From Candidatus Sungiibacteriota bacterium (GTDB lineage: Bacteria; Patescibacteriota; Minisyncoccia; Sungbacterales; HO2-52-23), in assembly GCA_016181585.1 (NCBI GenBank), contig JACOYX010000017.1, forward strand, positions 8,317 to 72,316: a stretch of DNA of 64,000 nucleotides. Direction: 5' to 3'. Position numbers and translations under genes: made by a program. Position 1 is the stretch's first letter. The number at the start of each line of letters is the position of its first letter. The notes beneath the pieces are model-generated. The model did no database searches. It had not been told where the DNA came from and saw only the letters and a program-made list of their open reading frames with translations. Below are positions 1,917 to 59,924 of this stretch, piece after piece.

Positions 1917-3062
1917 ATGTCAAGAGCAACCATCCTCTACTGTGTCACAAAATCGGTGTGGGGAGGCGCACAACGCTATGTCTACGACCTTGCGGCGGCA
2001 ATGCCAAAAGAGCAATTTTCAGTCATTGTCGCCGCAGGAGGGAACGGCCGCCTTTTTGATAAACTGAAAGAGAGAAATATCCGTACCATAACCATCGCGT
2101 CGCTTGAGCGTGACGTGCATTTTTTTAATGAGCTTTGCGTACTTAAAGAACTTTTTTGTTTATACAAAAAAGAAAAACCTGACATTGTCCACCTCAATAG
2201 TTCAAAAATAGGCATACTCGGCGCAATAGCCGCACGAGCGGCTTCCTTCGCGACAGGAAAAAGAATAAAAATCATTTTCACTGCCCACGGCTGGGCATTC
2301 AATGAAGATCGCAGCGCCCTGCAAAACAAATCGATCTATTGTGCCGTACGATTCGGTTCTCTTCTTCAAGACCGTGTTATTGTCATCAATTCCCGCGATC
2401 TCGAGACTGCCAAAAAATTTATTACAGAAAAAAAATTAGCACTTATCTTAAACGGCATCACTGCACCGGATTTTTTCCCGCAAACTTACGCTCGCGAATA
2501 TCTTGGAAAAAAAGCAGGCACTATTTTCAGCGAGCATACGCTGGTTATCGGCACCATCGCGGAACTTACCAAAAATAAAGGCATTACCTATCTTATCGCA
2601 GCGTCTCCCCGCTTGAATAAATCCTACTCATTCCATACTGTTATTATAGGCGATGGAGAAGACCGCGAAGCGCTCAATGCGGAAATTAAAAAACATCGTA
2701 TGGAAGACAAAATTTCTCTTGCGGGCTTTCTCGCCGGCGCCGCGCAATACATACACGGTTTTGATATTTTTGTTCTTCCCTCGTTAAAGGAAGGACTGCC
2801 CTATGTTATCTTGGAAGCGATGCATGCCGGAGTGCCAGTGGTGGCAACGGACATCGGGGGAATTTCTGACTTGATCGAACACAAAAAAACCGGCTTCCTT
2901 GTCCCCGCAAAAAGTCCTGGGCATATCGCATCCGCAGTAAGACGGCTCGCCGCGGATAAAAAACTTAGAGGAACCATCAGCACCAATGCCAAGGAAACAC
3001 TCAAGAAAAAATTCGACTTTAGTGCAATGATTAAAAAAACAATTGCAGTATACCTAAAATAA
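1917..3062 (+). CDS. Glycosyltransferase family 4 (GT-B, retaining GT1/GT4-like)
   Basis: 381 aa; N-terminal GT4 donor domain, C-terminal EX7E-type region (FVLPSLKEGLPYVILEAMHAGVPVVATDIGG). Confidence 0.8.
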   Translation: MSRATILYCVTKSVWGGAQRYVYDLAAAMPKEQFSVIVAAGGNGRLFDKLKERNIRTITIASLERDVHFFNELCVLKELFCLYKKEKPDIVHLNSSKIGILGAIAARAASFATGKRIKIIFTAHGWAFNEDRSALQNKSIYCAVRFGSLLQDRVIVINSRDLETAKKFITEKKLALILNGITAPDFFPQTYAREYLGKKAGTIFSEHTLVIGTIAELTKNKGITYLIAASPRLNKSYSFHTVIIGDGEDREALNAEIKKHRMEDKISLAGFLAGAAQYIHGFDIFVLPSLKEGLPYVILEAMHAGVPVVATDIGGISDLIEHKKTGFLVPAKSPGHIASAVRRLAADKKLRGTISTNAKETLKKKFDFSAMIKKTIAVYLK

Positions 3063-3094
3063 GCGGTAGAAAGTATTGTTAACAATGCAACGAT

Positions 3095-4477
3095 ATGACC
3101 AAATCCCGCCACTATATAAAACTACTCATTCTTTTTTGCGGAGACATAGCGCTTCTCTACCTCTCGCTTTTAGCGGGCCTTTTCGTCCGCTATTATCCAG
3201 AATCTGGCTGGCTTCTGGTAGATCAGCACATCATCCCCTTCAGTATTATTTTCGCTGTGTGGATAATTCTTTTCAACGCATTCGGGCTTTATGATCTGAA
3301 ATTCATGAAAAATGAAAAGATGTTTCTTTATCGGATTTTGCGGCTTATGCTCGCCAATACTATTCTTGCCATTATTCTTTTTTATTTTTTCCCCTTCACC
3401 ATAGAACCCCGCCGCAATCTTTTGATTATAGCCGTACTTACCACAGTACTCATTGCTCTATGGCGTTATCTTTTCAATTTTTTCCTCCTCAAAACACCGG
3501 CTTCGCGCATACTGTTTTTCGGTTTGAATACCGACATGAACGAACTCGCCGAATACATCCTCCAAAATCGCCAACTCGGGTTTAAACCCATCGGATTTAT
3601 TGCCGAAAACGCTTCCATTCCCATACTCTCTCCGGAATTTCTGTCCCTTCCCCTCCACACACTCGCTGAAAAAAAATTGAAAGCCATCGTACAGGAAACA
3701 CATGCGGATTCGATTATCATTTCCCGCGAAATAAAAGAAAACAAAACACTTACTAAAATTCTTTTCCAGGTTATTCCTTTGGGCGTTGGGGTTGTGGAAT
3801 TTGCCAAATTCCACGAAATGGTAACGGGGAAAATACCCCATTCTCTCATCGGGGAAATCTGGTTTTTGGAAAATCTTATCGGCATTAAAAAAGGACTTTA
3901 CGACTCCCTCAAACGCACCTGTGATATAGTCCTATCACTGGTATTCCTTTTTCCATCATTCTTTCTTTTTCCGCTCGCCGCGCTAGCGATAAAATGCGAA
4001 TCGCGGGGACCTGTGTTTTTCCGCCAAAAACGCGTCGGAAAAAACGGACAGGAATTTTGGCTGGTAAAATTCCGCTCCATGGTTGAAGATGCGGAAAAAA
4101 TGAGCGGTTTCAAAGGAGGAGGCCGTGACCCGCGACACACCCGCGTCGGCGCATTTTTGCGCAAAAGCTATCTTGATGAATTGCCGCAAATTTTCAATAT
4201 TATTCGCGGCGAGATGTCTTTCGTTGGTCCCCGCCCCGAACGCCCGGAATATGTGGCGGAGCTCAAGCAAAAAATCCCGTTTTACGAAATGAGACTTTTG
4301 GTATTACCCGGCATTACCGGCTGGGCGCAGATCAATATGGAAGACGATGCGTCCGTCGAAGACGCTCCGGAAAAAATGCAGTACGATCTTTATTACATTA
4401 AAAATCGGACATTTATTCTTGATCTTCTCATTATTATCCGCACTATTTTTGCCATTTTGGGAAGACAGGGACGTTGA
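3095..4477 (+). CDS. Polyprenyl-phosphate sugar phosphotransferase (bacterial sugar transferase, WbaP/CpsE/PglC-like initiating enzyme)
   Basis: N-terminal TM helices plus C-terminal PF02397-type catalytic domain (SLVFLFP...ESRGPVFFRQKRVGKNGQEFWLVKFRSM...DELPQIFNIIRGEMSFVGPRPE). Confidence 0.85.
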   Translation: MTKSRHYIKLLILFCGDIALLYLSLLAGLFVRYYPESGWLLVDQHIIPFSIIFAVWIILFNAFGLYDLKFMKNEKMFLYRILRLMLANTILAIILFYFFPFTIEPRRNLLIIAVLTTVLIALWRYLFNFFLLKTPASRILFFGLNTDMNELAEYILQNRQLGFKPIGFIAENASIPILSPEFLSLPLHTLAEKKLKAIVQETHADSIIISREIKENKTLTKILFQVIPLGVGVVEFAKFHEMVTGKIPHSLIGEIWFLENLIGIKKGLYDSLKRTCDIVLSLVFLFPSFFLFPLAALAIKCESRGPVFFRQKRVGKNGQEFWLVKFRSMVEDAEKMSGFKGGGRDPRHTRVGAFLRKSYLDELPQIFNIIRGEMSFVGPRPERPEYVAELKQKIPFYEMRLLVLPGITGWAQINMEDDASVEDAPEKMQYDLYYIKNRTFILDLLIIIRTIFAILGRQGR

Positions 4478-5241: not shown

Positions 5242-5399
5242 GGGAAACCCGCGGATTTTTCGCGGGGTTACGAAGTTGTGCAAGCATGGTTCCCGATATT
5301 CATTATTTTCTCTATAAATAAAAATCGGGATTGCACAACTTCGACCTTTTGTTTGCTCACTGGAGCAAACAAAAAAAGCGAAAAATCTGTGGGTTTCCC
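5242..5399. repeat. Structured repeat family F, copy 1: nested inverted repeats around core catggttcccgatattcatt...aaatcgggattg
   Basis: Outer IR gggaaaccc.c.gatttttcg; second IR gaagttgtgcaa/ttgcacaacttc; inner stem tcccgat/atcggga; side hairpin tttgctcactggagcaaa. Homologous copies at 45823-45957 and 7526-7589 with compensatory changes. Confidence 0.7.
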
Positions 5400-6331: not shown

Positions 6332-6342
6332 TTTAATAATTA

Positions 6343-6488
6343 GACCTACTGCGTAAAGATTTTCGTAACGAAATTTCTTAATTTAGAGACAAAATCGTTG
6401 AATAAATTTCGAGGCCTATCGGCTTAGATAAGTCAAGTTTGGCCGAAATTAAGAAATTGCAGTAGAAGTATCTTTACGCAGTAGGTCT
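6343..6488. repeat. Palindromic repeat family A, copy 1 (terminal IR agacctactgcgtaaag...ctttacgcagtaggtct)
   Basis: 17-bp terminal inverted repeats enclosing about 110 bp of imperfectly palindromic sequence; near-identical to the copy at 51264-51426. Confidence 0.75.
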
Positions 6489-6489
6489 A

Positions 6490-7413
6490 TTATTTATTAT
6501 TTTTCTTTTTTTGAGACTCAACTTTCCTCTTAACCCATTCGTGGTCGTGTACACTCACATCCTCAAGCGTCAGCCCTTGGCTCAAAAGCAACGCCTCATT
6601 GAACGCGCGATCCTGTTTCAAAAGATTTGCCGCATCGCTCATGCAATTTATCTCAAGCGAAGCGATCAATCCGTCAAGATCTTTGGGTAAGCAAAACCCG
6701 CCGAAACCTTTGTACCCTCCATGCGCCACATCGAGATGCGAATCGCCAATGCGAAAATCCGCCGCCAGGCCGCACCGCACGTTTTCGTAATCCCCCCCGA
6801 GGCTTGCCGCAAGCATCGCCAAAGAATTTGCAAAATTTATTTTCCGCGCAAAGTGAATATTACCCCCGTATTTTATAATCTCCGCTTCCGTTGCGGTTAT
6901 TTTCAACGAGCGATAGGTGTTGAGGCCTCCTGGCGACATAAAAGGCGCGCGCGGAAGCAGAGAGAGAGCGAGATAAGCCGCATCAATGCTTTGATTGGTA
7001 AACCCAACGATCTGGCGATCGGGACGGATAAAATCCTCCCATGCACGCCGCTCCGTTAAAAATTCAGGATTGAAGAGAAACTTGTGATGCGGATATTCCT
7101 CCTGAAATTTTTCAGTAGTTCCCGGCGGAACAGTGGATTTTATCACGATAATTTTCTCTCCCTTAATTTTTGAGATCGCGTTCTTTACAAAATTAATATT
7201 AGCCGAACCGTCTTCCGAACGAGGTGTCGGCACTGAAATAAAAACAATATCAGCATTGCTCACACGGTCGTTAAAGCCTTTTTTAGGGTCAATGTCATAC
7301 AAAAAAAGATCCTTGCCGCGCTTGTACTCCTGATACTCTTCAAAATACCGCGCAAGCGGACCTCCCACCATGCCAATCCCCACAATGCCGATTTTAATCT
7401 TTTTATTTTTCAT
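6490..7413 (-). CDS. UDP-glucose/GDP-mannose dehydrogenase family protein, short form lacking the C-terminal UDP-binding domain
   Basis: GIVGIGMVGG NAD-binding motif; catalytic GFGGFCLPKD; only 307 aa; stop lies 2 nt from the family-A repeat. Confidence 0.6.
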   Translation of the reverse strand: MKNKKIKIGIVGIGMVGGPLARYFEEYQEYKRGKDLFLYDIDPKKGFNDRVSNADIVFISVPTPRSEDGSANINFVKNAISKIKGEKIIVIKSTVPPGTTEKFQEEYPHHKFLFNPEFLTERRAWEDFIRPDRQIVGFTNQSIDAAYLALSLLPRAPFMSPGGLNTYRSLKITATEAEIIKYGGNIHFARKINFANSLAMLAASLGGDYENVRCGLAADFRIGDSHLDVAHGGYKGFGGFCLPKDLDGLIASLEINCMSDAANLLKQDRAFNEALLLSQGLTLEDVSVHDHEWVKRKVESQKKKNNK

Positions 7414-11144: not shown

Positions 11145-12260
11145 ATGAAAAAACTCCTTATCGTCGCCGACTCCCCTGGTTCCGCAGAATTCATTGCGCC
11201 CGTCATTCCCTTGCTTCAGAAAAAAACAAAGATCGTGGTCGTGACAGTCAACACTTCTACCGAAGCGCCGTATACGATATTAAAAAAATATAAGCCATTA
11301 CGATGCGATCATGAAAAAGATGCGGAGGCATTGTTTCGAAAAATAAAACCCGATATTCTGCTCGCGGGGACAAGCTCGCTCATCCCCGGCCCATTTGTCA
11401 ATAACTGCTTCATCCGCCTCATGCACCGAGAGCAAAAACCGGTTTTAGTCTTTCAAGACTATTGGGCAAACCACCGCTGGCCGCAAAACAAAGAAACTCT
11501 GCATTTGTGGAACGCCGTATTTGTGCCTGACGAACTTGCAAAAAAGTTTTTGCAGGAAGATGCTTTTTCGGGAAATATCATAACCACCGGCAATCCTGCG
11601 TTTGATAAATTCACAACTGCCAATCCCGCCGCGATTCGCAATGCATTGCGCAAGGAGCTCAACATACGCGGATATGAGTTTGTCATACTCTACGCCGGCA
11701 CCGGCACGCCGCAAGCATGGCAGGAAGATGAAGCAACATTTCGTTTTCTCGCTAATGCATTGCAGGAATTTTTTGCGAACACGCCGAATATCGTTTTTAT
11801 TCCCCGCTCTCACCCGCGCGATGAAGAAAAAAATCGGTATCAAAAACTGGCACCTCGTTTGCGGATGTATAACCCAGATCACGGAAAAAACATCTATTCT
11901 ACCGACAATCTACTCTTAATGGCAGATTGTATAATCAGCATGTATTCAACCGCGCTTCTGCACGCCTGTTTTCTCAAAATACCGGCCATAAGCATTCTTC
12001 TTCCCGATGCGGGCCGCGCGCGCCTTCGAAAAATCAATCTCGATAATTTTCCTCCCAATACCGTTGGCGCGACTATTGGTGTTTACAAAGAATCTACCAA
12101 GGACCTTGTCGCCGCATTCGACGCCGTTAAAAATGACCCGCACTATCGCCAAAAGATAACCAACGCGCAAACGCAATTTTTCTCTTTGGCACAGAACAAA
12201 AAATCAGCCACGGAAACTGCGGCCGATGCGATCACTTCTTTTATTAGACCTGCTGCGTAA
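11145..12260 (+). CDS. Hypothetical GT-B-fold-like protein, paralogue of 9983-10975
   Basis: 371 aa; similar architecture (..LLMADCIISMYSTALLHACFLKIPAI..); stop codon lies within the family-A repeat. Confidence 0.4.
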   Translation: MKKLLIVADSPGSAEFIAPVIPLLQKKTKIVVVTVNTSTEAPYTILKKYKPLRCDHEKDAEALFRKIKPDILLAGTSSLIPGPFVNNCFIRLMHREQKPVLVFQDYWANHRWPQNKETLHLWNAVFVPDELAKKFLQEDAFSGNIITTGNPAFDKFTTANPAAIRNALRKELNIRGYEFVILYAGTGTPQAWQEDEATFRFLANALQEFFANTPNIVFIPRSHPRDEEKNRYQKLAPRLRMYNPDHGKNIYSTDNLLLMADCIISMYSTALLHACFLKIPAISILLPDAGRARLRKINLDNFPPNTVGATIGVYKESTKDLVAAFDAVKNDPHYRQKITNAQTQFFSLAQNKKSATETAADAITSFIRPAA

Positions 12261-12360
12261 AAATTTTTCTACTGCAATTTCAATTCGCACCAAAATCGCT
12301 TCAGCAATTTTATCTCAAAATTCTGAAATTTCGCTATGAAAATCTTTACGCAGTAGGTCT
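12246..12360. repeat. Palindromic repeat family A, copy 2
   Basis: agacctgctgcgtaaaaa ... ctttacgcagtaggtct; supplies stop codons for both flanking genes. Confidence 0.7.
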
Positions 12361-12745
12361 ATTTCTTAATTCCTGTTTTTTTCTCAAGTTCAGCAATTCG
12401 TGATTCAAGTTTAGTATATTCGTCGTAGGTAATAAGACGCTTTTTACCCCGAGGATCGGTCCACTCGTTAATTTTTCTATGGATAAAGCGAAGTTCTTCA
12501 GAGTGATCTTCAAGAATTTCTTCTATAGTACCAATTCTTTGCTCTACCGCACCCATGCGAACTTTAAGATCCTCAATATCAGACTCCAGTTTCGAGAAAT
12601 GCTTGTCCACTCGATCAAACCGCGCATCTATTGCCTCAAACCGCGCATCAACCGCGTCAAAGCCAGCTTTTACCATCACAGCCAATTCATCGATTGTAAC
12701 GCCCTTCTTTTTGGCCATAGTGCCATTATAATCAATCCATCCCAT
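12359..12745 (-). CDS. Hypothetical coiled-coil protein
   Basis: About 128 aa; repeated ARFxAIDARFDRVD heptad-like segments; the ORF-track start is TTG, so I used the first ATG. Confidence 0.45.
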   Translation of the reverse strand: MGWIDYNGTMAKKKGVTIDELAVMVKAGFDAVDARFEAIDARFDRVDKHFSKLESDIEDLKVRMGAVEQRIGTIEEILEDHSEELRFIHRKINEWTDPRGKKRLITYDEYTKLESRIAELEKKTGIKK

Positions 12746-22676: not shown

Positions 22677-22984
22677 ACCGCTCTTTTTTTCATTTCCTCA
22701 TTGCCCGTGACACCTCTGCTTTTCCAATAACCAACCGCAGGGATTTTCCTTATTTTAAGCCACCTTTTCAGCTACTTGACTTCTCAACAAAGAAATGATA
22801 GCGTGTAAATGTCTGATGGGACAGAGGTTGGAATTGTCTACAGACAGTTTGCCTTAAAGCGCCGACCTCTCGGGACTACCCATCCAGCCCAATTGGGACG
22901 AATGCCGCGATAGACGCGGGGTAGAGAGGAAACGCGACCATCCCATCAGGCATGCTCAGCTCTTTGGAGTTGAGCTTTTCTTTG

Positions 22985-23033
22985 TCCTCACTTTCCATGA
23001 CACCTCTGCTTTTTCAATAACCAACCGCAGGCC
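22985..23033. repeat. Repeat family G (cctcactttccatgacacctctgcttttcaataaccaaccgcagg); four copies at 22692-22750, 22985-23033, 23563-23620 and 23990-24050
   Basis: Copies 2 and 4 share an identical 23-mer. On the minus strand it reads gaggtgtcATGgaaagtgagga.aaa and forms the RBS/start of the NUDIX gene; copy 3 encodes the NUDIX C-terminus. Confidence 0.6.
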
Positions 23034-23206
23034 TGCCAGCCGAAGCCTCGGCGTAGGCGGGGATTTTCCCGCGGCCTTCCGTAGCTTTTAGCGTAGGAGG
23101 CTTTATTTCCCGCCAGAGGCGTGTCCGCCTTCGGCGGATAAGCTGTTTTTCCATCTTTGGCACGATTGAATTTGCTGAATGATAGAAAATGTCATGCGAA
23201 ATTTTC

Positions 23207-23235
23207 TTGACATAGCATACATTTATTTCTATACT
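23207..23235 (+). promoter_or_regulatory. Sigma70-type promoter TTGACA-N17-TATACT for the 23272 gene
   Basis: TTGACA 23207-23212; 17-nt spacer; TATACT 23230-23235; AGGAGG RBS at 23258. Confidence 0.6.
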
Positions 23236-23271
23236 TTTTTCAGAACCTGATAACACAGGAGGTACCCTCGC

Positions 23272-23511
23272 ATGAAGTATCTGCTTACTTTTCTCGCTAT
23301 TTTTGCTGCCTTTACGCTTTTGATTTTCGGTGCTATCCATCTTGATCTATTGCTAAATCCTTGGCTTCGTAACGCCGTGCAGGAGTGGAGGTGGTATAAC
23401 TATTTCACCTCGCATCATGCCGTTACTGCTCTTTACCTGGGAGGATGGCTCTGGTTAATTCCTTCGTTCATCATCTCGGCAATAGCATCTTTAGTTATCA
23501 CACAAGATTAG
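23272..23511 (+). CDS. Small two-TM membrane protein (79 aa)
   Basis: Strong promoter and SD; hydrophobic helices; terminator follows at 23521-23556. Confidence 0.55.
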   Translation: MKYLLTFLAIFAAFTLLIFGAIHLDLLLNPWLRNAVQEWRWYNYFTSHHAVTALYLGGWLWLIPSFIISAIASLVITQD

Positions 23512-23520
23512 CCAGTCATC

Positions 23521-23556
23521 TGCGCCCGGTTCACTGGAATCGGGCCTTTTTCTTTA
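23521..23556 (+). terminator. Rho-independent terminator gcccgg-ttcactggaat-cgggc + T-run
   Basis: Stem-loop followed by ctttttcttt. Confidence 0.5.
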
Positions 23557-23583
23557 TATTATCTCCCATGACACTTTTGCTCT

Positions 23584-23982
23584 TTATTGACTAGCCCGCA
23601 GGGATTTACTCACAAAATCTTTTAAATACGGCGTTGTCTCTAACTCCATAAATTCGTCTTTTGTAACCCATCGGAATTCGGTGTGCTCGTTGTTTAACTT
23701 TACATCACCGTTTACCGCCTTGCATCTGTAGCCGATAAATAGCACATAATTATCTTCATCCTTGTTGTAAGCGGTTTCCACAACCAGCGGAATAATATTG
23801 TCTATATCTATTCCAGCTTCTTCTTTTACTTCTCGTCTTAGTGCGGTTTCGTGTTCTTCTGGTATTTCAACTGCTCCGCCCGGTAAATCCCATCGCAATC
23901 CTTTATATGATGCTTTCAACACAAGAAACTTACCCTCTCTATTTGACACAATTGCTTTCTGGTGAAAATTGATTTTAGCCAT
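23584..23982 (-). CDS. NUDIX hydrolase
   Basis: Nudix box GGAVEIPEEHETALRREVKEEAGI; start moved to the second ATG (MAKINF...), which has GGAAAGTGAGGA upstream. Confidence 0.75.
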   Translation of the reverse strand: MAKINFHQKAIVSNREGKFLVLKASYKGLRWDLPGGAVEIPEEHETALRREVKEEAGIDIDNIIPLVVETAYNKDEDNYVLFIGYRCKAVNGDVKLNNEHTEFRWVTKDEFMELETTPYLKDFVSKSLRASQ

Positions 23983-24012
23983 ATTTTTTATCCTCACTTT
24001 CCATGACACCTC

Positions 24013-24687
24013 TTATATTTCTTTCCACTTCCTCACTTCCTCATTTGCCTTTTTATATCTCTCCTCGGTTCCCGCATCGATCCAATATCCTTTATGCAAA
24101 AAAACATTCAGTTCGCCGCTCTCGGCAAGCCGCGGAAAAATCTCTTTTTCGATCATAAATTCTTCCGGTGTGTTTTCAAACACAGTCGGCGACAAAAGAT
24201 AAAATCCGCAATTCACATACCCCGTAATTTTTTCCTGCGGTTTTTCGAGAAACTCTTTTATCTTGCCATTATCAATGTTTAAAAGCCCAAAATCCCGCGC
24301 ATCGCTCACCTCCACACACATGATAGTATTGGGCAAAGAGCGCATCATCGCGGAAATATCCACATCAGTTAAACCATCTCCATTGAGCACCAAAAATGGT
24401 TCTTTCAAATCACGACTCGCGAATTTAATTCCCCCGCCCGTACCCAAAGGCCTCGGTTCCACCACATACTCAAATTTTCCCGGCCACTTCGCCTCACAAA
24501 ATGCGATAACCTGATCTGCCTTATGATACAAACTCAAGCGAATGTCGAAGATGCCATGCTTTTGCAATAAATTTACTTGATGCTCCAAAATCGTAACTCC
24601 ACCGACTTCAGCAAGCGGCTTTGGCCTCTCTCCCGTAATTTTTGCAAGCCGGGTGCCGAAACCACCGGCTAAAATAATTGCTTTCAT
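24013..24687 (-). CDS. Sugar-phosphate nucleotidyltransferase (NTP_transferase family)
   Basis: MKAIILAGGFGTRL signature; 224 aa; the start codon lies inside the left 22-bp TIR of the MITE-like element. Confidence 0.75.
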   Translation of the reverse strand: MKAIILAGGFGTRLAKITGERPKPLAEVGGVTILEHQVNLLQKHGIFDIRLSLYHKADQVIAFCEAKWPGKFEYVVEPRPLGTGGGIKFASRDLKEPFLVLNGDGLTDVDISAMMRSLPNTIMCVEVSDARDFGLLNIDNGKIKEFLEKPQEKITGYVNCGFYLLSPTVFENTPEEFMIEKEIFPRLAESGELNVFLHKGYWIDAGTEERYKKANEEVRKWKEI

Positions 24688-25142
24688 CCCACACATAACT
24701 TACACAAGACTATATTGAAGACACTCTTTAAGTCTCCGTAAACCCTGCGCATTTAATTGGTCTGTTGCCGAATAGCACTTTGACTACAATTGCATAAATT
24801 CGGTCAAATTTTTCAAAAAATTTCTTGGCTTATCTTCCAGATAGGCCGCAAAATTTTTTGAAAAATTTGCCTCGAATTTCTGCAACTTCGCGACGTAGGC
24901 TATTCGGCAACAGACCCTTAATTTTAAAGATTGTTCTCTCTTATAAGCATCATCTTTTTACACATAAGCTTCATAGTACACAAGTCGCCATGGCAAATAC
25001 TTTTTTGTGTACGACGACTTGCCACTGTTATGCTGATATAGTCTTCTACGAAGATCACCTGTACCCTACGTACAAACCATCAACAGTTTCAGATTTGAGC
25101 AAATACACATAATACATGTTTGTGTAAGTTATGTGTGGGATG
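24685..25142. mobile_element. MITE-like element: 458 bp bounded by 22-bp perfect terminal inverted repeats (catcccacacataacttacaca / tgtgtaagttatgtgtgggatg); non-coding interior built from mosaic repeat modules
   Basis: TIRs at 24685-24706 and 25121-25142. Interior carries module D (ggtctgttgccgaatagc ... gctattcggcaacagacc) and module C (cttggcttatcttccagataggccgcaaaa), both shared with 40596-40775, 42021-42477 and 57660-57893. The TIRs supply the start codon of 24013-24687 and the last 5 codons plus stop of 25129-25857. Confidence 0.6.
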
Positions 25143-25857
25143 AATTACTTTTTCTCAATAACAACTCCGCAATCTCAAAATCAATCGCGTGATCAATATC
25201 CACCGTCGGCCTTTTAAGAAAATACGGCAAAACCTTACCACCAATGACTGAATTTTTCTCCATAATTGTACTATAACGCACCACACCGATATCTGCAGTG
25301 GTCTGATACACTTTGGGCAATGACTGACGAGGTGCGGTATGCCAATCTTTCATGCCAGGCATATCTGAAACAAAGGGGTCAATAAAATCTCCCGCTATCT
25401 TCCACATTTTAAAGGGTGGCTTCGATGGCTCTTCTATCGAACGCACACTATCGGCTTCCGGAAATTTTTCCAAAAGCTCAATGGACTCATCAATCTCCTC
25501 CGCGGTACGCAAAGGCCCGGTCGGCCGCAAATGCACTAGAATATCCGGCTGATATTTTTCATGATCCTTCAGCCACTCCAGTGCGTGTAAAAAAACCGGC
25601 GTATCCGGCGTCAAATCTTCAGCTAAATTTGCGGGACGCAAAAAAGGCACCTCGACGCCATATTTTCTTGCGATGTCGGCAATCTCTTCATTGTCGGTAG
25701 ACACAATCACGCGATCAATATATTTTGATTTTTTTGCCACACCAATGCTCCACGCAAGCAACGGTTTACCCGCAAGTAATTGTATGTTTTTTTTCGGTAT
25801 CCCCTTTGATCCCCCCCTCGCAGGGATGAGAGCTAATATCTTTTTTCTATTTATCAT
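25129..25857 (-). CDS. Acylneuraminate cytidylyltransferase family (second CMP-nonulosonic acid synthetase)
   Basis: ILALIPARGGSKGIPKKN signature; start moved to MINRKK; last 5 codons lie in the TIR. Confidence 0.75.
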   Translation of the reverse strand: MINRKKILALIPARGGSKGIPKKNIQLLAGKPLLAWSIGVAKKSKYIDRVIVSTDNEEIADIARKYGVEVPFLRPANLAEDLTPDTPVFLHALEWLKDHEKYQPDILVHLRPTGPLRTAEEIDESIELLEKFPEADSVRSIEEPSKPPFKMWKIAGDFIDPFVSDMPGMKDWHTAPRQSLPKVYQTTADIGVVRYSTIMEKNSVIGGKVLPYFLKRPTVDIDHAIDFEIAELLLRKSNSSHT

Positions 25858-40595: not shown

Positions 40596-40775
40596 TTCTA
40601 GCAATATAAAAATGAAAAATGACGGTTAAAATTTAAAATTTCGCATTTTACATTGTCATTTTTCATTTTTATATTAGACCCACTGATTAAAGATAAATCT
40701 ACTGCAATTTCATAATTTCGGCCAAAATCGTCTCAAAATTTATTGGCTTACCTTACAGGTAGGCCGCAAATTTTT
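40596..40775. repeat. Mosaic intergenic repeat: 21-bp perfect IR (aatataaaaatgaaaaatgac / gtcatttttcatttttatatt) + family-A-like arm (agacccactgattaaagat) + module C
   Basis: Module B (gtcatttttcattttt) recurs at 54370-54390 and 55545-55565; module C (ttggcttaccttacaggtaggccgcaaatttttgaa) recurs at 24860-24890, 42225-42255 and 57795-57835 (reverse). Confidence 0.65.
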
Positions 40776-40778
40776 GAA

Positions 40779-42020
40779 CTACTTTGGTATGACCCTTTCC
40801 CCTCCCACTGGCATGATAAATTTGCCGCCTTTGGCGATAAAATCCTTTTCCTTTTGTAAAATGATATCCTTGTACGGCCACGCGAGCAAAAAATAATAAT
40901 CAGGAGGATTTTGCCGCGCCCATGAGATATCTACAATAGGAATATGCGTGCCCGGAGTAAATTTGCCGATTTTTGAAGGAAGCGTTTCAGTCGCAAAATC
41001 AAGCACCGACCTGCCGATACCAAAATAATTCAGGAGAGTATTTCCGCGCGCCGGAGCGCCATAGGCCGCAATGCGTTTCCCTTCCCGCTTCAGCCGAAGC
41101 AGTGTCCCTTTTATGTCCTCCCGCAGAGCCTCAACGCTTTTTGCCAATTTTTGATACGAAGAAAAGTTATCAAAACCGCGCATCCTCTCAAGCGCGGAAT
41201 ACCGCCCGACACTTTCTTCGATAGCATACGTGCCCGGACGCGCCGCATAGTAGCGAAGCGAATTCCCTTGCACAGGGAAAGGCTTTACGTCAAAAAGTTC
41301 AAGTCCATACTGCGTCAAAAGCTTATTTAGCGGTTTCACCGCCAAGTAAGACATATGCTCATGATAAACAGAATCAAACGCCAACTGGTCAAACATATCC
41401 CCGAGATAGGGCGCCTCGAACACAAAAACACCTTGTGGAGAAAGAAGCGACACAACACCTTTCATAAGATCATGATGATCATCTATATGTGCCACGACAT
41501 TATTGCCGATAATTACATCGGCCTGTCCGAATTCGTCTGCAATTTTCTGTGCCGTCGCTTCACCGAAAAATTCCGCACGCGTCATAACTCCGCGCTCGTT
41601 TGCCATCGCCGCAACATTTTCCGCAGGATCAACCCCCAGTACCTGCACGCCGTATTGTTTGATTAAATAAAGCAAATGCCCGTCGTTTGATCCGATTTCT
41701 ATAACAAATTTTCCCGTATCAGGCAAAAACCGCGCCCGCATTTCCTCCGCATAGCCCGTGAAATGCAAAGAGCTGGGAATACCGGAAGAAAGATATACAT
41801 AGTCATGCACAAAGAGAAGCCGCGGATCAACCACATGGCTTAATTGCACCAGATTGCAGTTTTCACAAAACACGAGACCTAAAGGAAAACGTTTTTCCGA
41901 CGCAAACGATGCAGTATCGCGAAGCAGTGAATTTGCCAGTGGCTGATCCCCCAAATCAAAAAAATGTCTGAGACTTTCCGACTCGCACATTCTACATTTT
42001 ATTTGTTGATAAACATCCAC
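40779..42020 (-). CDS. SAM-dependent sugar C-methyltransferase (TcaB9/TylC3-like) with N-terminal Zn-ribbon
   Basis: CRMCES...CENC zinc ribbon; methyltransferase domain (VIEIGSNDGHLL); C-methyltransferase C-terminal domain; 413 aa. Confidence 0.7.
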   Translation of the reverse strand: MDVYQQIKCRMCESESLRHFFDLGDQPLANSLLRDTASFASEKRFPLGLVFCENCNLVQLSHVVDPRLLFVHDYVYLSSGIPSSLHFTGYAEEMRARFLPDTGKFVIEIGSNDGHLLYLIKQYGVQVLGVDPAENVAAMANERGVMTRAEFFGEATAQKIADEFGQADVIIGNNVVAHIDDHHDLMKGVVSLLSPQGVFVFEAPYLGDMFDQLAFDSVYHEHMSYLAVKPLNKLLTQYGLELFDVKPFPVQGNSLRYYAARPGTYAIEESVGRYSALERMRGFDNFSSYQKLAKSVEALREDIKGTLLRLKREGKRIAAYGAPARGNTLLNYFGIGRSVLDFATETLPSKIGKFTPGTHIPIVDISWARQNPPDYYFLLAWPYKDIILQKEKDFIAKGGKFIMPVGGERVIPK

Positions 42021-42477
42021 GTTGATAATTTAAAAGATATCTTTACGTATAGGTCTATTTAATGGGTTTGTTGCCGAATATCGCTTATGAGCTACGATTG
42101 CATAAATTCGGGTAAATCGCATCGCGATTTACGGGAAATTTAGCGAAGCCGGGTATTCCCGTGCGAAGCGTAAAATTTCCCCGGCTTTTGCTCAAGGAAG
42201 CAAAAGAATTTTTCAAAAAAATTCTTGGCTTATCTCAGCATATAGGCCTTAAACGGTCGATCAGTCCCAGACCGTTCGTACCGAACGGCATGGACCAAGT
42301 CAGGTTTTAGACCGCGTAGTTTGTGTGAGTATTTGCCTCGTCCAGACATGTCGGGATCGCTTCAAAGGCTATTCGGCAACAGTCCCTTAAAGCAGATTGA
42401 GCCTTTTTATACTAAAAAGAATTCAAAATAAAGGCAAATAGAAAAACCCTTCTGAAAGGGTTTTTCTCCAGAAACAG
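42021..42477. repeat. 457-bp non-coding spacer built from repeat modules A-like, D, C and E
   Basis: tctttacgtataggtct; gttgccgaata...ctattcggcaacag; cttggcttatctcagcatataggcc; ggccttaaacggtcgatcagtcccagaccgttcgtaccgaacgg...caggttttagacc (reverse complement of 57700-57790). Confidence 0.6.
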
Positions 42478-44895: not shown

Positions 44896-45795
44896 TCACA
44901 ATATCTCTGGCTTCTCTTCTTTTTTAGTGTCCCTTTCGGCAACAAATTTTTTTACTTGTTCGTACCACATCGGCTTCGGCCACAAAAGATTGCCATTTTC
45001 ATCATAGACCGGAAGTAAAACTTTTTCTTCCTGCATAATTTCAATTATTTCTTTTTCAAACTCTACTGAATTTCCGTGCAAACCAAGACTTTTGACACCA
45101 CCAAAGTCTCTTGCTACCACAATCCCTTTGAAAAATCGCGGCGACACACGCGAAAAGATTTCAAAACCGTGTTCAGTATCAGCCTTCGGAAAACCATTTT
45201 CATCTATAATATTATGCTGTTTTAGTCTCTCAAATTCTGGATGTTCCAATATACGCGGATCACCGGGTCGTAACCCTTTAAAATACTTTTTCCAGATTTC
45301 TTGCATACCCTCTCCTGCATTCCAAAATGATTTTACGTTTTTGTTCTCTTTATTGCGCTCATCCGGAGAAATTTCTTTAAATGACGATGGATCAAAAATA
45401 ATTCCTATGGAACCGGATAACCACCAATATGATTTCTTTATCTCAATTGGGTTTTGATCAGAAGTCCTTTTAAAGGAGTTTGCTCTGCCGACAATGTTAA
45501 AACACAACCACAAACCACCTTCTCTTTTCCGCGTAGCTTCCGCCCATGGCTCCTTCCATGGACCTGAATGCAGACCCGTACCAAGAATACCTTCATGGAG
45601 CACTTTTGGAAGTTTTCCTAATGAATTTCCTCTCTCACCATACGCACCTAAAACATGATACGCCGTTCCTTTTTTATTAATATCCTGTACTTTTTCCATA
45701 ATCTTCTCGATCACTTCCGGAGAAAGTTCTTTCTCCCTTTCTTTTCCTTCATCAGCCCTCTCCACAGATTTATTTTCAAATTTTGATTTTTCCAT
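44896..45795 (-). CDS. Hypothetical protein
   Basis: About 300 aa; Lys/Glu-rich; no recognised motif; start moved to MEKSKF to exclude the part overlapping repeat F2. Confidence 0.4.
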   Translation of the reverse strand: MEKSKFENKSVERADEGKEREKELSPEVIEKIMEKVQDINKKGTAYHVLGAYGERGNSLGKLPKVLHEGILGTGLHSGPWKEPWAEATRKREGGLWLCFNIVGRANSFKRTSDQNPIEIKKSYWWLSGSIGIIFDPSSFKEISPDERNKENKNVKSFWNAGEGMQEIWKKYFKGLRPGDPRILEHPEFERLKQHNIIDENGFPKADTEHGFEIFSRVSPRFFKGIVVARDFGGVKSLGLHGNSVEFEKEIIEIMQEEKVLLPVYDENGNLLWPKPMWYEQVKKFVAERDTKKEEKPEIL

Positions 45796-45822
45796 GGCAA
45801 TAGCACGAGAAAGGTCACTATT

Positions 45823-45957
45823 GATTTTTCGCGGGGTTTTGAAGTTTCGCAAGCATGGTTCCCGATATTCATTATTTTATTTTTATAAATGAAAATCGGG
45901 ATTGCGAAACTTCACCCTTCAATTTGCTCGCTGGAGCAAATTGAAAAAGCGAAAATT
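45823..45957. repeat. Structured repeat family F, copy 2
   Basis: gaagtttcgcaa-gcatggttcccgatattcatt...aaatcgggat-tgcgaaacttc; side hairpin atttgctcgctggagcaaat; compensatory changes relative to copy 1. Confidence 0.7.
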
Positions 45958-51097: not shown

Positions 51098-51263
51098 AAC
51101 TTTTTATTTTTAATTATGAGGCATGACCTCATAAATGAGAAAACTCCATAATAAACATATAACAAGCGAAAAGAGCTTTACGTTTCGACCATGCTGTCTT
51201 TAAGAAACTGTCTGAAAAGTACTCTTTCGGTAAAAACAAACCGTCTTTTCGATAAAAATCATT

Positions 51264-51426
51264 AGACCTACTGCGTAAAGATTTTCGTAACGAAATTTCT
51301 TAATTTAGAGACAAAATCGTTGAATAAATTTCGAGGCCTATCGGGCTTAGATAAGTCAAGAAATTTTGAAGCGATTTTGGCCTAAATTAAGAAATTGCAG
51401 TAGAAGTATCTTTACGCAGTAGGTCT
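51264..51426. repeat. Palindromic repeat family A, copy 3 (first 95 nt identical to copy 1 at 6343)
   Basis: agacctactgcgtaaagattttcgtaacgaaatttcttaatttagagacaaaatcgttgaataaatttcgaggcctatcgg...ctttacgcagtaggtct. Confidence 0.75.
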
Positions 51427-51454
51427 ATTGATTTTAACTTCGAAAGGTACTTTT

Positions 51455-54298: not shown

Positions 54299-54392
54299 GT
54301 CTAAAAAAGTTCAAAATGAAAATTTTTGGTATTCTTTTCACTCATAAAATTTATACAATACGTCCCGATTTATCGGGACACAACAATTTTTC

Positions 54393-54472
54393 ATTTTGCC
54401 TAGCCTATTCGCATTAGACCGTCTGCGGCAGTCAGACCAGGTCACAGACGGCTTAAGGATATTTACATTTTA
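54393..54472. repeat. Intergenic repeat family H, copy 2, preceded by module B
   Basis: attttgcctagcct...gaccgtctg...cagacggcttaaggatatttacatttta; abuts the stop of 54473-55444. Confidence 0.6.
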
Positions 54473-55444: not shown

Positions 55445-55477
55445 TGCAAAATTTAAAAATCAAAATTAAAAATGATG

Positions 55478-55560
55478 CTTCGGGCGTCATCCCGGCGGAA
55501 GCTGGGATCCAAGTTCTCTGGATCCCGCATCTAGTGCGGGATGACACCGCTGTGTCATTT
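55478..55560. repeat. Nested hairpin element (gtcatcccg...cgggatgac enclosing gggatcca-agttctc-tggatccc), followed by module B
   Basis: 9-bp outer stem, 8-bp inner perfect stem, additional gcttc...gaagc pairing. Confidence 0.5.
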
Positions 55561-55571
55561 TTCATTTTGTA

Positions 55572-57650: not shown

Positions 57651-57659
57651 GTGGAAATT

Positions 57660-57893
57660 AGATCTGCTGATTAAAGATTTTCGTTACGATCCCGACATAT
57701 CGGGACAGAATTTCGAGACAAAATCGCTTAACAAATTTTGCGGTCTAAAACCTGACCTGCTCCGTACCGTTCGGTATGAACGGTCTGGGACGTTTCGGCC
57801 GTTTAAGGCCTATCTGTAAGGTAAGCCAAAAAGTTTTGAAGTGATTTTGGAGCGAATTGAAATTGCAGCAGAATTACCTTTACGCAGTAGGTC
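57660..57893. repeat. Palindromic repeat family A, copy 4 (long mosaic variant carrying modules E and C)
   Basis: agatctgctgattaaag...ctttacgcagtaggtca; internal hairpin tcccgacatatcgggac; modules E and C in reverse orientation relative to 42021-42477. Confidence 0.65.
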
Positions 57894-57909
57894 AATTAAA
57901 TAAAATATA

Positions 57910-59884: not shown

Positions 59885-59924
59885 AGACCTACTGCGCAAA
59901 GAATTATCTTTGCGCAGTAGGTCT
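59885..59924. repeat. Minimal family-A palindrome: 17-bp perfect-stem hairpin agacctactgcgcaaag-aattat-ctttgcgcagtaggtct
   Basis: Fills nearly the whole 54-nt spacer between two minus-strand genes. Confidence 0.7.

Follow-up and report, generated by a model that had tools for sequence, protein, structure and literature searches.

Modular intergenic repeats in a glycan-biosynthesis cluster of Candidatus Sungiibacteriota are most probably copies of a miniature transposon

The locus

We analyzed a 64-kb stretch of contig JACOYX010000017.1 from Candidatus Sungiibacteriota (hereafter the window; coordinates are window positions unless they follow an L number, which denotes a locus used for comparison). 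The window is a glycan-biosynthesis cluster whose minus strand carries nearly all genes. They encode an initiating sugar transferase, glycosyltransferases, a Wzy_C-domain protein (O-antigen ligase family), and epimerases, together with NeuB, a carbamoyltransferase, a C-methyltransferase, and both subunits (E1alpha and E1beta) of a thiamine-dependent E1 enzyme. The spacers on both sides of the methyltransferase gene, and several others in the window, contain hairpin-forming repeats. These repeats are most probably copies of a non-autonomous DNA transposon, a miniature inverted-repeat transposable element (MITE), resident in the Candidatus Sungbacteria genome. We accordingly read both spacers, with the same high confidence, as MITE copies, fragments, and nested copies that were inserted, and not as traces of gene-shuffling recombination.

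Architecture of the element

The canonical unit is a rod-like hairpin of 161 nucleotides (nt) with the ends 5'-AGACCTACTGCGTAAAGAT...ATCTTTACGCAGTAGGTCT-3'. The 20-nt end TAGACCTACTGCGTAAAGAT and its reverse complement bracket the repeats at 6.3, 12.2, 51.3, 57.7, and 59.9 kb; one end stands alone at 40.7 kb and another at 42.04 kb. A family profile was built from 52 distinct canonical copies and searched against the window with nhmmer. The termini of 19–20 nt are nearly invariant over these aligned copies and form perfect inverted repeats in most copies. In total, the window holds seven standard copies or fragments and two copies with variant termini (Table 1).

The scaffold runs in the order terminus, arm A, optional hairpins, central hairpin, an optional hairpin, arm B, and terminus, and the rod is closed by the central hairpin. 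The two sub-terminal arms differ, A containing TTTTCGTAGCGAAAT and B containing ATTGCAGYAGAA, which is a repeat of the terminal CTACTGC motif about 19 nt further inward. Because each copy has one A arm and one B arm, the unit is directional. All of the window copies are collinear on this single scaffold, as seen in the profile matches and in a five-way alignment of the 24.8, 40.7, 42, 51.3, and 57.7 kb copies. The element has no coding capacity; open reading frames (ORFs) across the copies are spurious translations of the repeat itself. Lengths are quantised: 51 of 97 paired copies at metagenome loci measure 161–167 nt, with further classes at ~205 and ~250 nt and short copies of 52–121 nt (modal length 161 nt, range 40–466 nt).

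A preliminary description of this DNA had named several modules shared between the spacers, and these find their places on the scaffold. Its modules A and B are the arms of the MITE. Module C, a short hairpin GGCTTATC-loop-GATAGGCC at 24827–24847, 40745–40765, and 57807–57827 with a variant at 42225–42250, is the central hairpin of one subfamily and is also present in L007, L112, L141, L163, L182, and others. Module E is a self-contained optional hairpin block, whose core CCGTTCGGTAYGAACGGTCTRGG also lies within MITE copies of L160 and L207. The sharing itself was correctly described. The 42 and 57.7 kb spacers have module E in opposite orientations over 86 nt (85% complementary in a repeat finder), and blastn-short aligned 42242–42315 with 57813–57740 (88% over 74 nt, E = 4e-16). 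The spacer at 40596–40775 does carry arm B and module C, since 40675–40779 on the minus strand corresponds to profile positions 57–161. The 234-bp element proposed at 57660–57893 nearly coincides with the transposon limits derived here, 57660–57894, with ATT on each side. Chance is ruled out because identical termini and the same scaffold were seen again in more than 120 independent contigs.

The copies vary in the presence, absence, and orientation of their sub-modules. Compared with the 51.3 kb copy, the 6.3 kb copy lacks 16 nt internally, and these two have in common an 84-nt perfect direct repeat. The 12.2 kb copy separates convergent genes, both of whose stop codons come from its termini. 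The half copy at 40.7 kb is truncated on the A side, and ATT precedes its terminus TAGACCCACTGATTAAAGAT (40675–40694). The solo terminus at 42037–42057, for which the remainder of the copy is absent, has exact matches of 10–11 nt to the termini of other copies. The 57.7 kb copy carries module E (57731–57816), module C, and a small hairpin GATCCCGACATATCGGGAC (57688–57706) with an inverted partner at 42340–42358; its two termini are unmatched and of different sub-types. In the 42 kb copy, the usual internal scaffold is enlarged by three extra hairpin blocks. An 89-nt block of hairpins is private to this copy, with no other match within the window or the 227 loci. The copy is internally mosaic. 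It resembles the 24.8 kb copy in its termini and B side (97% over 29 nt and 96% over 25 nt) and the 57.7 kb copy in its module E and small hairpin, which occupy the same relative positions. Exchange between copies (gene conversion) or site-specific gain of hairpin modules within elements is a possible explanation.

Further modules were observed in and around the copies. MITE copies in L012, L025, L029, L091, L175, L176, L160, and L207 contain an extra GC-rich hairpin of 44 nt, GACGCGAGGCG...CGCCCCGTC, which is inserted in one arm or the other and may face either way; its insertion accounts for the ~205- and ~250-nt size classes. A GC-rich palindrome, GTCCCGAYWTRTCGGGAC, lies free in a spacer at 54361–54380, is an optional module in two MITE copies (57688–57706 and 42340–42358), and also occurs at L187 8427–8446 and L188 13200–13219; it may be an independently mobile mini-hairpin. 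Two Parcubacteria metagenome-assembled genomes (MAGs) each contain a MITE B half, at L011 7467–7563 and L039 6360–6463. The two halves are near-identical, end at one and the same base shortly beyond the central hairpin, and occupy different sites. The 40.7 kb copy of the window is likewise a B half, and the repeated B halves suggest a recurrent breakpoint or a mobile half-element.

Evidence for insertion

Target duplication was examined in 103 distinct copies. When the element is taken as AGACC...GGTCT, the 3-nt flanks are identical in 77 of them, whereas 2000 permutations of the flanks gave 22.6 on average and at most 38; the middle base of the flank triplet agrees in 91. The duplications are ATT (33 copies), AAT (22), ACT (7), AGT (4), and ATA (3), plus single others, and the reconstructed target sites are A/T-rich. 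Where the 'end base' is other than T/A, the opposite flank has the same base in 14 of 20 copies. The odd ends GGTCTT, GGTCTG, and AAGACC are therefore explained by a shared base in the duplication.

Sites without the element were also found. At L081 (5120–5360), a paralogous junction without the 193-nt element has a single ATT and represents an empty site. Orthologous empty sites are present in L222, L224, L225, L226, and L227. At least 15 copies lie in the retrieved parts of one Sungbacteria MAG. The repeats thus show terminal inverted repeats, a duplication of fixed length, a small non-coding size, and dispersed copies with empty sites, as is characteristic of MITEs.

The junctions of the methyltransferase gene illustrate the insertions. 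In L225, L226, and L227, the order NeuB, methyltransferase, 590-aa gene is kept on one strand without the elements (NeuB identities to the window of 94%, 88%, and 85%, respectively; the window itself being 100%). The distance between the NeuB and methyltransferase genes is 457 nt in the window, 94 nt in L225, and 114 nt in L227, and in L226 a 163-aa ORF is followed by 151 nt. The methyltransferase and 590-aa genes are 185 nt apart in the window and overlap by 4 nt in L226 and L227; this junction is not covered in L225. From the conserved order in the relatives, it follows that the methyltransferase gene is resident and that both spacers are insertions in the lineage of the window. We also considered whether the gene was carried as cargo between the half copy at 40.7 kb and the solo terminus at 42.04 kb; this was rejected because the gene occupies that position in relatives that have no elements.

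The 185-nt block consists of the truncated MITE half and an unrelated 73-nt palindrome. The truncated end of the MITE half gives the methyltransferase a new stop codon, one codon beyond the ancestral C-terminus. In the 457-nt spacer, the ~80 nt beside NeuB are ancestral and contain a terminator-like hairpin (42440–42467) and an A/T-rich stretch, which are kept in the relatives. A degenerate terminus was considered at ~42393–42407 and rejected, as this stretch is ancestral spacer conserved in L226. The rest, ~355 nt, is inserted DNA composed of the solo terminus and the 329-nt MITE copy, the latter missing in all three relatives. The insertions have enlarged the two junctions from a 4-nt overlap to 185 nt and from ~100 nt to 457 nt, and a structured block of ~355 nt now separates the conserved spacer segment from the methyltransferase start.

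The E1 genes present a similar case. The E1alpha–E1beta spacer is 259 nt long in the window and holds the 57.7 kb copy. In relatives without the element, the two genes are 6 nt apart (L222, E1beta 91% identical), overlap (L224, 73%), or are separated by 56 nt (L223), so the 259-nt spacer is likewise an insertion. In a polycistronic mRNA, such hairpins could be sites at which the transcript is processed, stabilized, or terminated.

From these observations, a course of events can be proposed. A transposase supplied in trans would make cuts staggered by 3 bp at A-N-T sites (ATT or AAT in most cases) within A/T-rich DNA between genes, and the element would insert in either orientation. Several kinds of change would then diversify the copies. 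Hairpin modules of 40–90 nt would be gained or lost (module E here, the 44-nt GC-rich hairpin elsewhere); internal sequence would be deleted, as in the 12.2 kb copy and, down to the bare ends, in the 59.9 kb copy; one side would be truncated, as in the half copy at 40.7 kb; and copies would become nested or juxtaposed, as in the 42 kb spacer. The sequences themselves show the termini, the 3-bp duplication, the empty sites, the dispersal, the random orientation, and the absence from relatives; the kind of transposase, its mode of action by cut-and-paste or copy-out, and the effect of the insertions on expression are what we infer.

Table 1. Features of the window considered in this study. MITE denotes copies of the putative miniature element; triplets and longer strings separated by a slash are the left and right flanks.
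Feature	Positions	Strand	Basis
MITE copy, ATT/ATT	6339..6491 (element 6342-6488, 147 nt)	+	nhmmer full length, E = 8e-31
MITE copy with internal deletion, ATT/ATT	12243..12363 (element 12246-12360)	-	profile match
Variant-terminus MITE copy GGTCTGTTGCCGAATAGC..., TTAAT/TTAAT	24756..24920	-	nhmmer profile positions 23-136 (interior), E = 6e-11
Separate 73-nt palindrome ATAAAAATGAAAAATGAC...GTCATTTTTCATTTTTAT	40596..40675		perfect 21-nt inverted repeat 40603-40623 / 40655-40675
MITE half copy (B terminus, arm B, module C, and a few more bases)	40673..40779	-	nhmmer profile 57-161, E = 4e-16
C-methyltransferase gene, GTG start at 42020	40779..42020	-	Pfam Methyltransf_13, _23, _14
Solo MITE terminus ATCTTTACGTATAGGTCT, then ATT	42037..42057		sequence inspection; relatives without
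Variant-terminus MITE copy GGGTTTGTTGCCGAATATC...GCTATTCGGCAACAGTCCC, 329 nt, TTAAT/TTAAA	42062..42390	-	collinear alignment with 24.8, 40.7, 51.3, and 57.7 kb copies
Hairpin block private to the 42 kb copy, 89 nt	42118..42206	-	alignment gap between arm B and central stem
Module E, reverse complement of 57731-57816	42239..42324	-	inverted repeat, 88% over 74 nt
Ancestral part of NeuB-methyltransferase spacer	42400..42477	-	aligns with L225, L226
Near-canonical MITE copy, ATT/ATT	51261..51429 (element 51264-51426)	+	nhmmer full length, E = 4e-35
Full MITE copy with insertions, ATT/ATT	57657..57897 (element 57660-57894)	+	profile match; relatives without
Minimal copy, two termini and a 4-nt loop, flanks ACA/GCA	59885..59924		inverted repeat; termini-only profile match

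Distribution and genomic context

Among species-representative genomes, paired ends 95–205 nt apart were found in MAGs of Sungbacteria, Staskawiczbacteria, Jorgensenbacteria, and the 'Parcubacteria group', in 'Saccharibacteria'-labelled MAGs, and in one Pacearchaeota-labelled contig. Two proteins of the window have 100% identical counterparts in a Candidatus Sungbacteria MAG, on a contig of 84 kb. A scan of metagenomes with the exact 20-mer end matched at least 120 contigs, mainly in groundwater assemblies, and many of these contigs end inside the repeat. No family match was found in viral contigs, phage records, or plasmid records. The near-invariant termini across several Patescibacteria lineages point to recent horizontal spread or a conserved transposase. 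A canonical 161-nt copy was observed at L008 6891–7051 (DAOSDI010000025.1, labelled Candidatus Pacearchaeota archaeon), adjoining an isoleucyl-tRNA synthetase fragment whose homologues lie on Patescibacteria contigs; either the contig was mis-binned or the element spread across domains.

The copies are intergenic and lie upstream (68) about as often as downstream (70) of the flanking genes. Between co-directional genes, five are in the sense and seven in the antisense orientation, and copies also occur between divergent and convergent genes. The flanking genes match 160 Pfam families, each with at most three matches. A link of the element to glycan genes was rejected because the neighboring genes are functionally diverse. 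In three genomes, a MITE copy lies 48–280 nt upstream of a heavy-metal P-type ATPase gene (L012 2187–2391; L016 2026–2187; L103, ~280 nt upstream of ORF 2376–3828), which may be a coincidence or reflect a favored A/T-rich target.

The search for an autonomous partner covered 898 clustered ORFs from 147 loci, a Pfam census of 138 flanking proteins, and distant terminus pairs with matching duplications. The sole distant-terminus candidate, L008 5715–7050, was rejected because it encloses a Na/Ca exchanger gene and not a transposase. A NeuB-like gene in L152 has a complete copy on one side and, on the other, a terminus that the end of the contig interrupts. A winged-helix protein with a PaaX_M (Cas2-like) domain occurs in nine of the 147 element loci (L006, L062, L091, L114, L129, L159, L175, L176, and L196). 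It is sometimes only 10–68 nt from the element; it was rejected as a partner because it is usually kilobases away, and it is probably just an abundant Patescibacteria family.

Observations that weigh against a simple MITE

Several observations speak against the interpretation as an ordinary MITE. No autonomous partner or transposase gene bounded by the termini was found in the 147 loci or the window. The outer A and T of the dominant A-N-T duplication are inseparable from the element ends in most copies. Because most duplications have this form, the 3-bp length rests on the ~20 informative copies and the L081 empty site. The variant termini GGGTTTGTTGCCGAATATC and their inverted partner, found in the 42 kb copy, occur also at 24759–24776 / 24899–24916 and in a 159-nt copy at L013 445–603, and all three copies have TTAA-like flanks and not A-N-T. 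They may have been moved by another enzyme.

The remaining observations concern the hairpin. A canonical copy folds into a near-complete rod with a folding energy of −79 kcal/mol (z = −13), and the values for the 51.3 kb copy are −75.6 kcal/mol and z = −12.3. Over the 52 distinct canonical copies, compensatory double changes are found in 35 of 52 predicted pairs. Paired cells amount to 96.2%, compared with 86.3% in column shuffles and 29–43% when the partners are slid. Of the 98 distinct copies in the fold test, 90 have a more stable fold on the A-to-B strand than on the complementary one. The mean fold energies of the two strands are −83.8 and −72.8 kcal/mol with RNA parameters and −48.8 and −45.1 kcal/mol with DNA parameters. 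In one sequence from each of 19 clusters, the paired columns contain 59 G-U against 14 A-C combinations; this excess is suggestive and not decisive, given the relatedness of the copies and a structure that had been predicted from that strand. Neither covariation over the whole length nor an advantage of one strand is predicted for a plain MITE moved as double-stranded DNA by cut-and-paste.

Transposition may include a step through single-stranded DNA, or the element may have a function whichever of its strands is transcribed. A cis-acting role in mRNA that depends on one strand of the element is unlikely, since the orientation relative to genes is random. We also considered that the whole 161-nt rod is selected as a single-stranded molecule, either a folded DNA transposition intermediate or a mobile RNA module, and we hold this to be doubtful. 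If it were true, the DNA-hairpin version would be a mechanism undescribed for target-duplicating elements, and the RNA version would be, for example, an RNase III-type processing or insulating hairpin kept by Patescibacteria across class-level lineages. In that case the optional modules, such as module E and the 44-nt block, would form a second level of units able to move or to be converted.

Alternative explanations

The preliminary description had likened the repeats to the shuffled modules of Correia elements and bacterial interspersed mosaic elements (BIMEs), and proposed that repeated recombination between spacers could invert or exchange the gene blocks between them. As modular, dispersed intergenic repeats, they are indeed of that general kind, but such inversion or exchange of gene blocks is unsupported. 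If the spacers had become mosaics through repeated recombination, homologous or illegitimate, among intergenic repeats, the 15-kb block that lies between the inverted copies at 42 and 57.7 kb could be inverted or exchanged through them; the mixed composition of the 42 kb copy and the unmatched termini of the 57.7 kb copy agree with this, and the direct repeat of the 6.3 and 51.3 kb copies, the sole pair long enough as an obvious deletion substrate, could support deletion. However, the longest perfect match of the inverted copies is 17 nt, the genes from 42 to 57.7 kb are all still co-oriented, and gene order and orientation are as in the element-free relatives. No alternative junction was found. 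Logan contigs from run SRR12113430 match parts of the window identically, one of them stopping within the 42 kb spacer; this single other assembly of the same strain is 100% collinear in the same orientation or breaks in the repeat. That the copies were inserted is evident from the target duplications and the empty sites. As a transposon inserts either way round, the inverted module pair can be explained without recombination, and we consider rearrangement of this kind unlikely. Nor did the modules prove to be the end of a known insertion sequence (IS) or transposon, as no match was found in plasmid and phage collections or in the literature. Invertible promoters (invertons), which switch glycan genes in Bacteroides capsule loci, would suit the 20-nt inverted repeats around segments of 100–200 nt in the present polysaccharide cluster, and both orientations are seen among the copies. 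The copies, though, also adjoin unrelated housekeeping genes and occur at 3' ends and in spacers of convergent genes. The 59.9 kb copy lacks a segment that could invert, and the second assembly has the same orientation. No recombinase gene was found among the scanned ORFs of the window, and the duplications and empty sites again point elsewhere, so that switching by inversion appears extremely improbable.

The strand-asymmetric fold bears on the other explanations. A hairpin moved as single-stranded DNA by an HUH enzyme (RAYT or IS200/IS605-type), like the repetitive extragenic palindromic (REP) sequences and their doublets (REPINs), would be recognised in the folded A-to-B strand. This would suit the strand preference and the excess of G-U over A-C at paired columns, the conserved, asymmetric internal loops, the small hairpins found on one strand only (TTCG-TAG-CGAA), the GTAG/CTAC motif in the termini, and the 59.9 kb copy, which is close to a bare doublet of ends. 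Transposition by HUH enzymes through single strands is not known to make a target duplication, however, and a 3-bp duplication exists here. The perfect inverted-repeat termini are typical of DDE elements, and no Y1 or RAYT-like protein was found among the recurrent neighbors of the copies; we regard this route as very unlikely. It is just as unlikely that the element is in the first place a multi-copy structured RNA whose spread was secondary. It could then be the gene of a small RNA, or it could act in cis on the mRNA as a terminator or as a hairpin for processing or stability. The very strong covariation over the 161-nt rod, with z of about −13, the G-U intermediates on a single strand, and the hairpin expansions at defined positions would be expected of structured RNAs, and both the 59.9 kb copy (on the minus strand) and module C score as terminator-like. 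Against this, there is no orientation bias relative to transcription, upstream and downstream placement are equal, and target duplications and empty sites mark insertion. Promoter and terminator scans gave counts at the shuffle level except for the known hairpins, with no conserved promoter-like signal. Rfam gave no gathering-level covariance-model match in the window, and E-value searches of the spacers yielded only sub-threshold generic hairpins (miRNA precursors); a tRNA/tmRNA scan of the window detected none. Integron attC sites that delimit mobile gene cassettes would be hairpins lying, as here, exactly between a stop and the next start codon in a co-oriented array. They too would fold asymmetrically by strand with structure better conserved than interior sequence, and the L152 NeuB-like gene between an element and a second terminus could resemble a cassette. 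The R''/R' boxes of attC sites are RYYYAAC...GTTRRRY, and the present ends, TTAGAC...GTCTAA, have the reverse arrangement. Moreover, the copies occur in both orientations 2–28 kb apart with a 3-bp duplication, one of them splits an E1alpha/E1beta pair that is contiguous in relatives, and no integrase was seen. We give attC sites practically no credence and retain the insertion of a MITE as the explanation.

Other repeats in the window

The 73-nt palindrome at the methyltransferase junction belongs to a different small repeat family and is not present in the relatives, whose two genes overlap. Members of this family, with the ends AAAATGAAAAATGAC...GTCATTTTTCATTTT, were observed at 40603–40675, ~54314–54398, and ~55468–55568, and pieces match the Patescibacteria loci L008 and L184. 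Beside the last of these, an A/T-rich segment (55448–55473) matches L139 three times and also L112.

A 34-nt inverted repeat (24683–24716 / 25111–25144, 88%) encloses the whole 430-nt spacer that holds the 24.8 kb variant copy and overlaps the ends of both flanking genes. It may represent a further, larger fold-back element. A hairpin-rich intergenic repeat of 131 nt, unrelated to the MITE, is present at 5254–5384 and 45823–45955 (85% identity), and its second copy overlaps the 5' end of ORF 44896–45852. Four copies of a 56-nt repeat (61–84% identical) start at 22686, 22976, 23547, and 23982 in a gene-poor stretch (22686–24037) beside a NUDIX-like ORF (23584–24009). They have no Rfam match. 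On the minus strand, each ends with a ribosome-binding site and a start codon, and the four may derive from a gene start that was duplicated in tandem and then decayed.

Implications

A 161-base MITE family is newly described here, whereas MITEs as a kind are already known. The family spans several Patescibacteria lineages, and its structure is conserved to an unusual degree. We found no earlier description in the literature, searched by sequence string and by the topic of MITEs or REPINs in the candidate phyla radiation (CPR) or Patescibacteria. For annotation and assembly, the family accounts for inflated, repeat-rich spacers and for contig breaks in Patescibacteria MAGs. It provides stop codons and changes gene junctions, and its copies can be mistaken for regulatory RNAs, invertons, or recombination scars. 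Ultra-small, streamlined genomes thus tolerate an active or recently active miniature transposon. Within the glycan cluster, insertions have uncoupled genes whose counterparts overlap in relatives, and long hairpins in the operon transcripts may alter the expression of surface-sugar genes. The covariation and the strand preference also make the family a useful case for asking why bacterial MITEs keep whole-length hairpins.

Comparison with known systems

The element lies outside the Correia, ERIC, REP/BIME, and attC groups and any Rfam family. REP, BIME, and REPIN sequences are likewise dispersed intergenic palindromes with inverted doublets that form long hairpins, mosaic modules, and a GTAG/CTAC motif. 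They differ in having RAYT-linked units of ~35 nt without target duplication, whereas the present unit has 161 nt, perfect 19-nt termini, and a duplication. Tourist-type MITEs (PIF/Harbinger, related to the bacterial IS5 family) share the small non-coding size, the terminal repeats, the A/T-rich 3-bp duplication, and the fold-back structure. However, they are eukaryotic, and their duplication is TWA, compared with AWT here.

The enterobacterial repetitive intergenic consensus (ERIC), or intergenic repeat unit (IRU), is an imperfect palindrome of ~127 bp in transcribed intergenic regions. Its size classes arise by internal deletions and by insertions of ~70 bp at fixed internal sites, and these insertions parallel module E and the 44-nt module of the present element. 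ERIC differs in that no target duplication or transposase-type termini have been demonstrated, and its sequence is not similar.

Correia elements (NEMIS) of Neisseria are intergenic MITEs of ~100–160 bp with terminal repeats of ~20–26 bp and a short duplication, inserted in either orientation. They too have length variants formed by internal blocks, and their hairpins are co-transcribed with neighboring genes. The host phylum and the termini are different, and there is no apparent sequence similarity. Correia elements duplicate TA, while the Patescibacteria element duplicates 3 bp of the form A-N-T and, unlike them, forms a near-perfect whole-length rod with covariation and a preferred folding strand. 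By analogy, the functional behavior of the Patescibacteria element would be closest to that of the Correia element, and its size classes recall those of ERIC.

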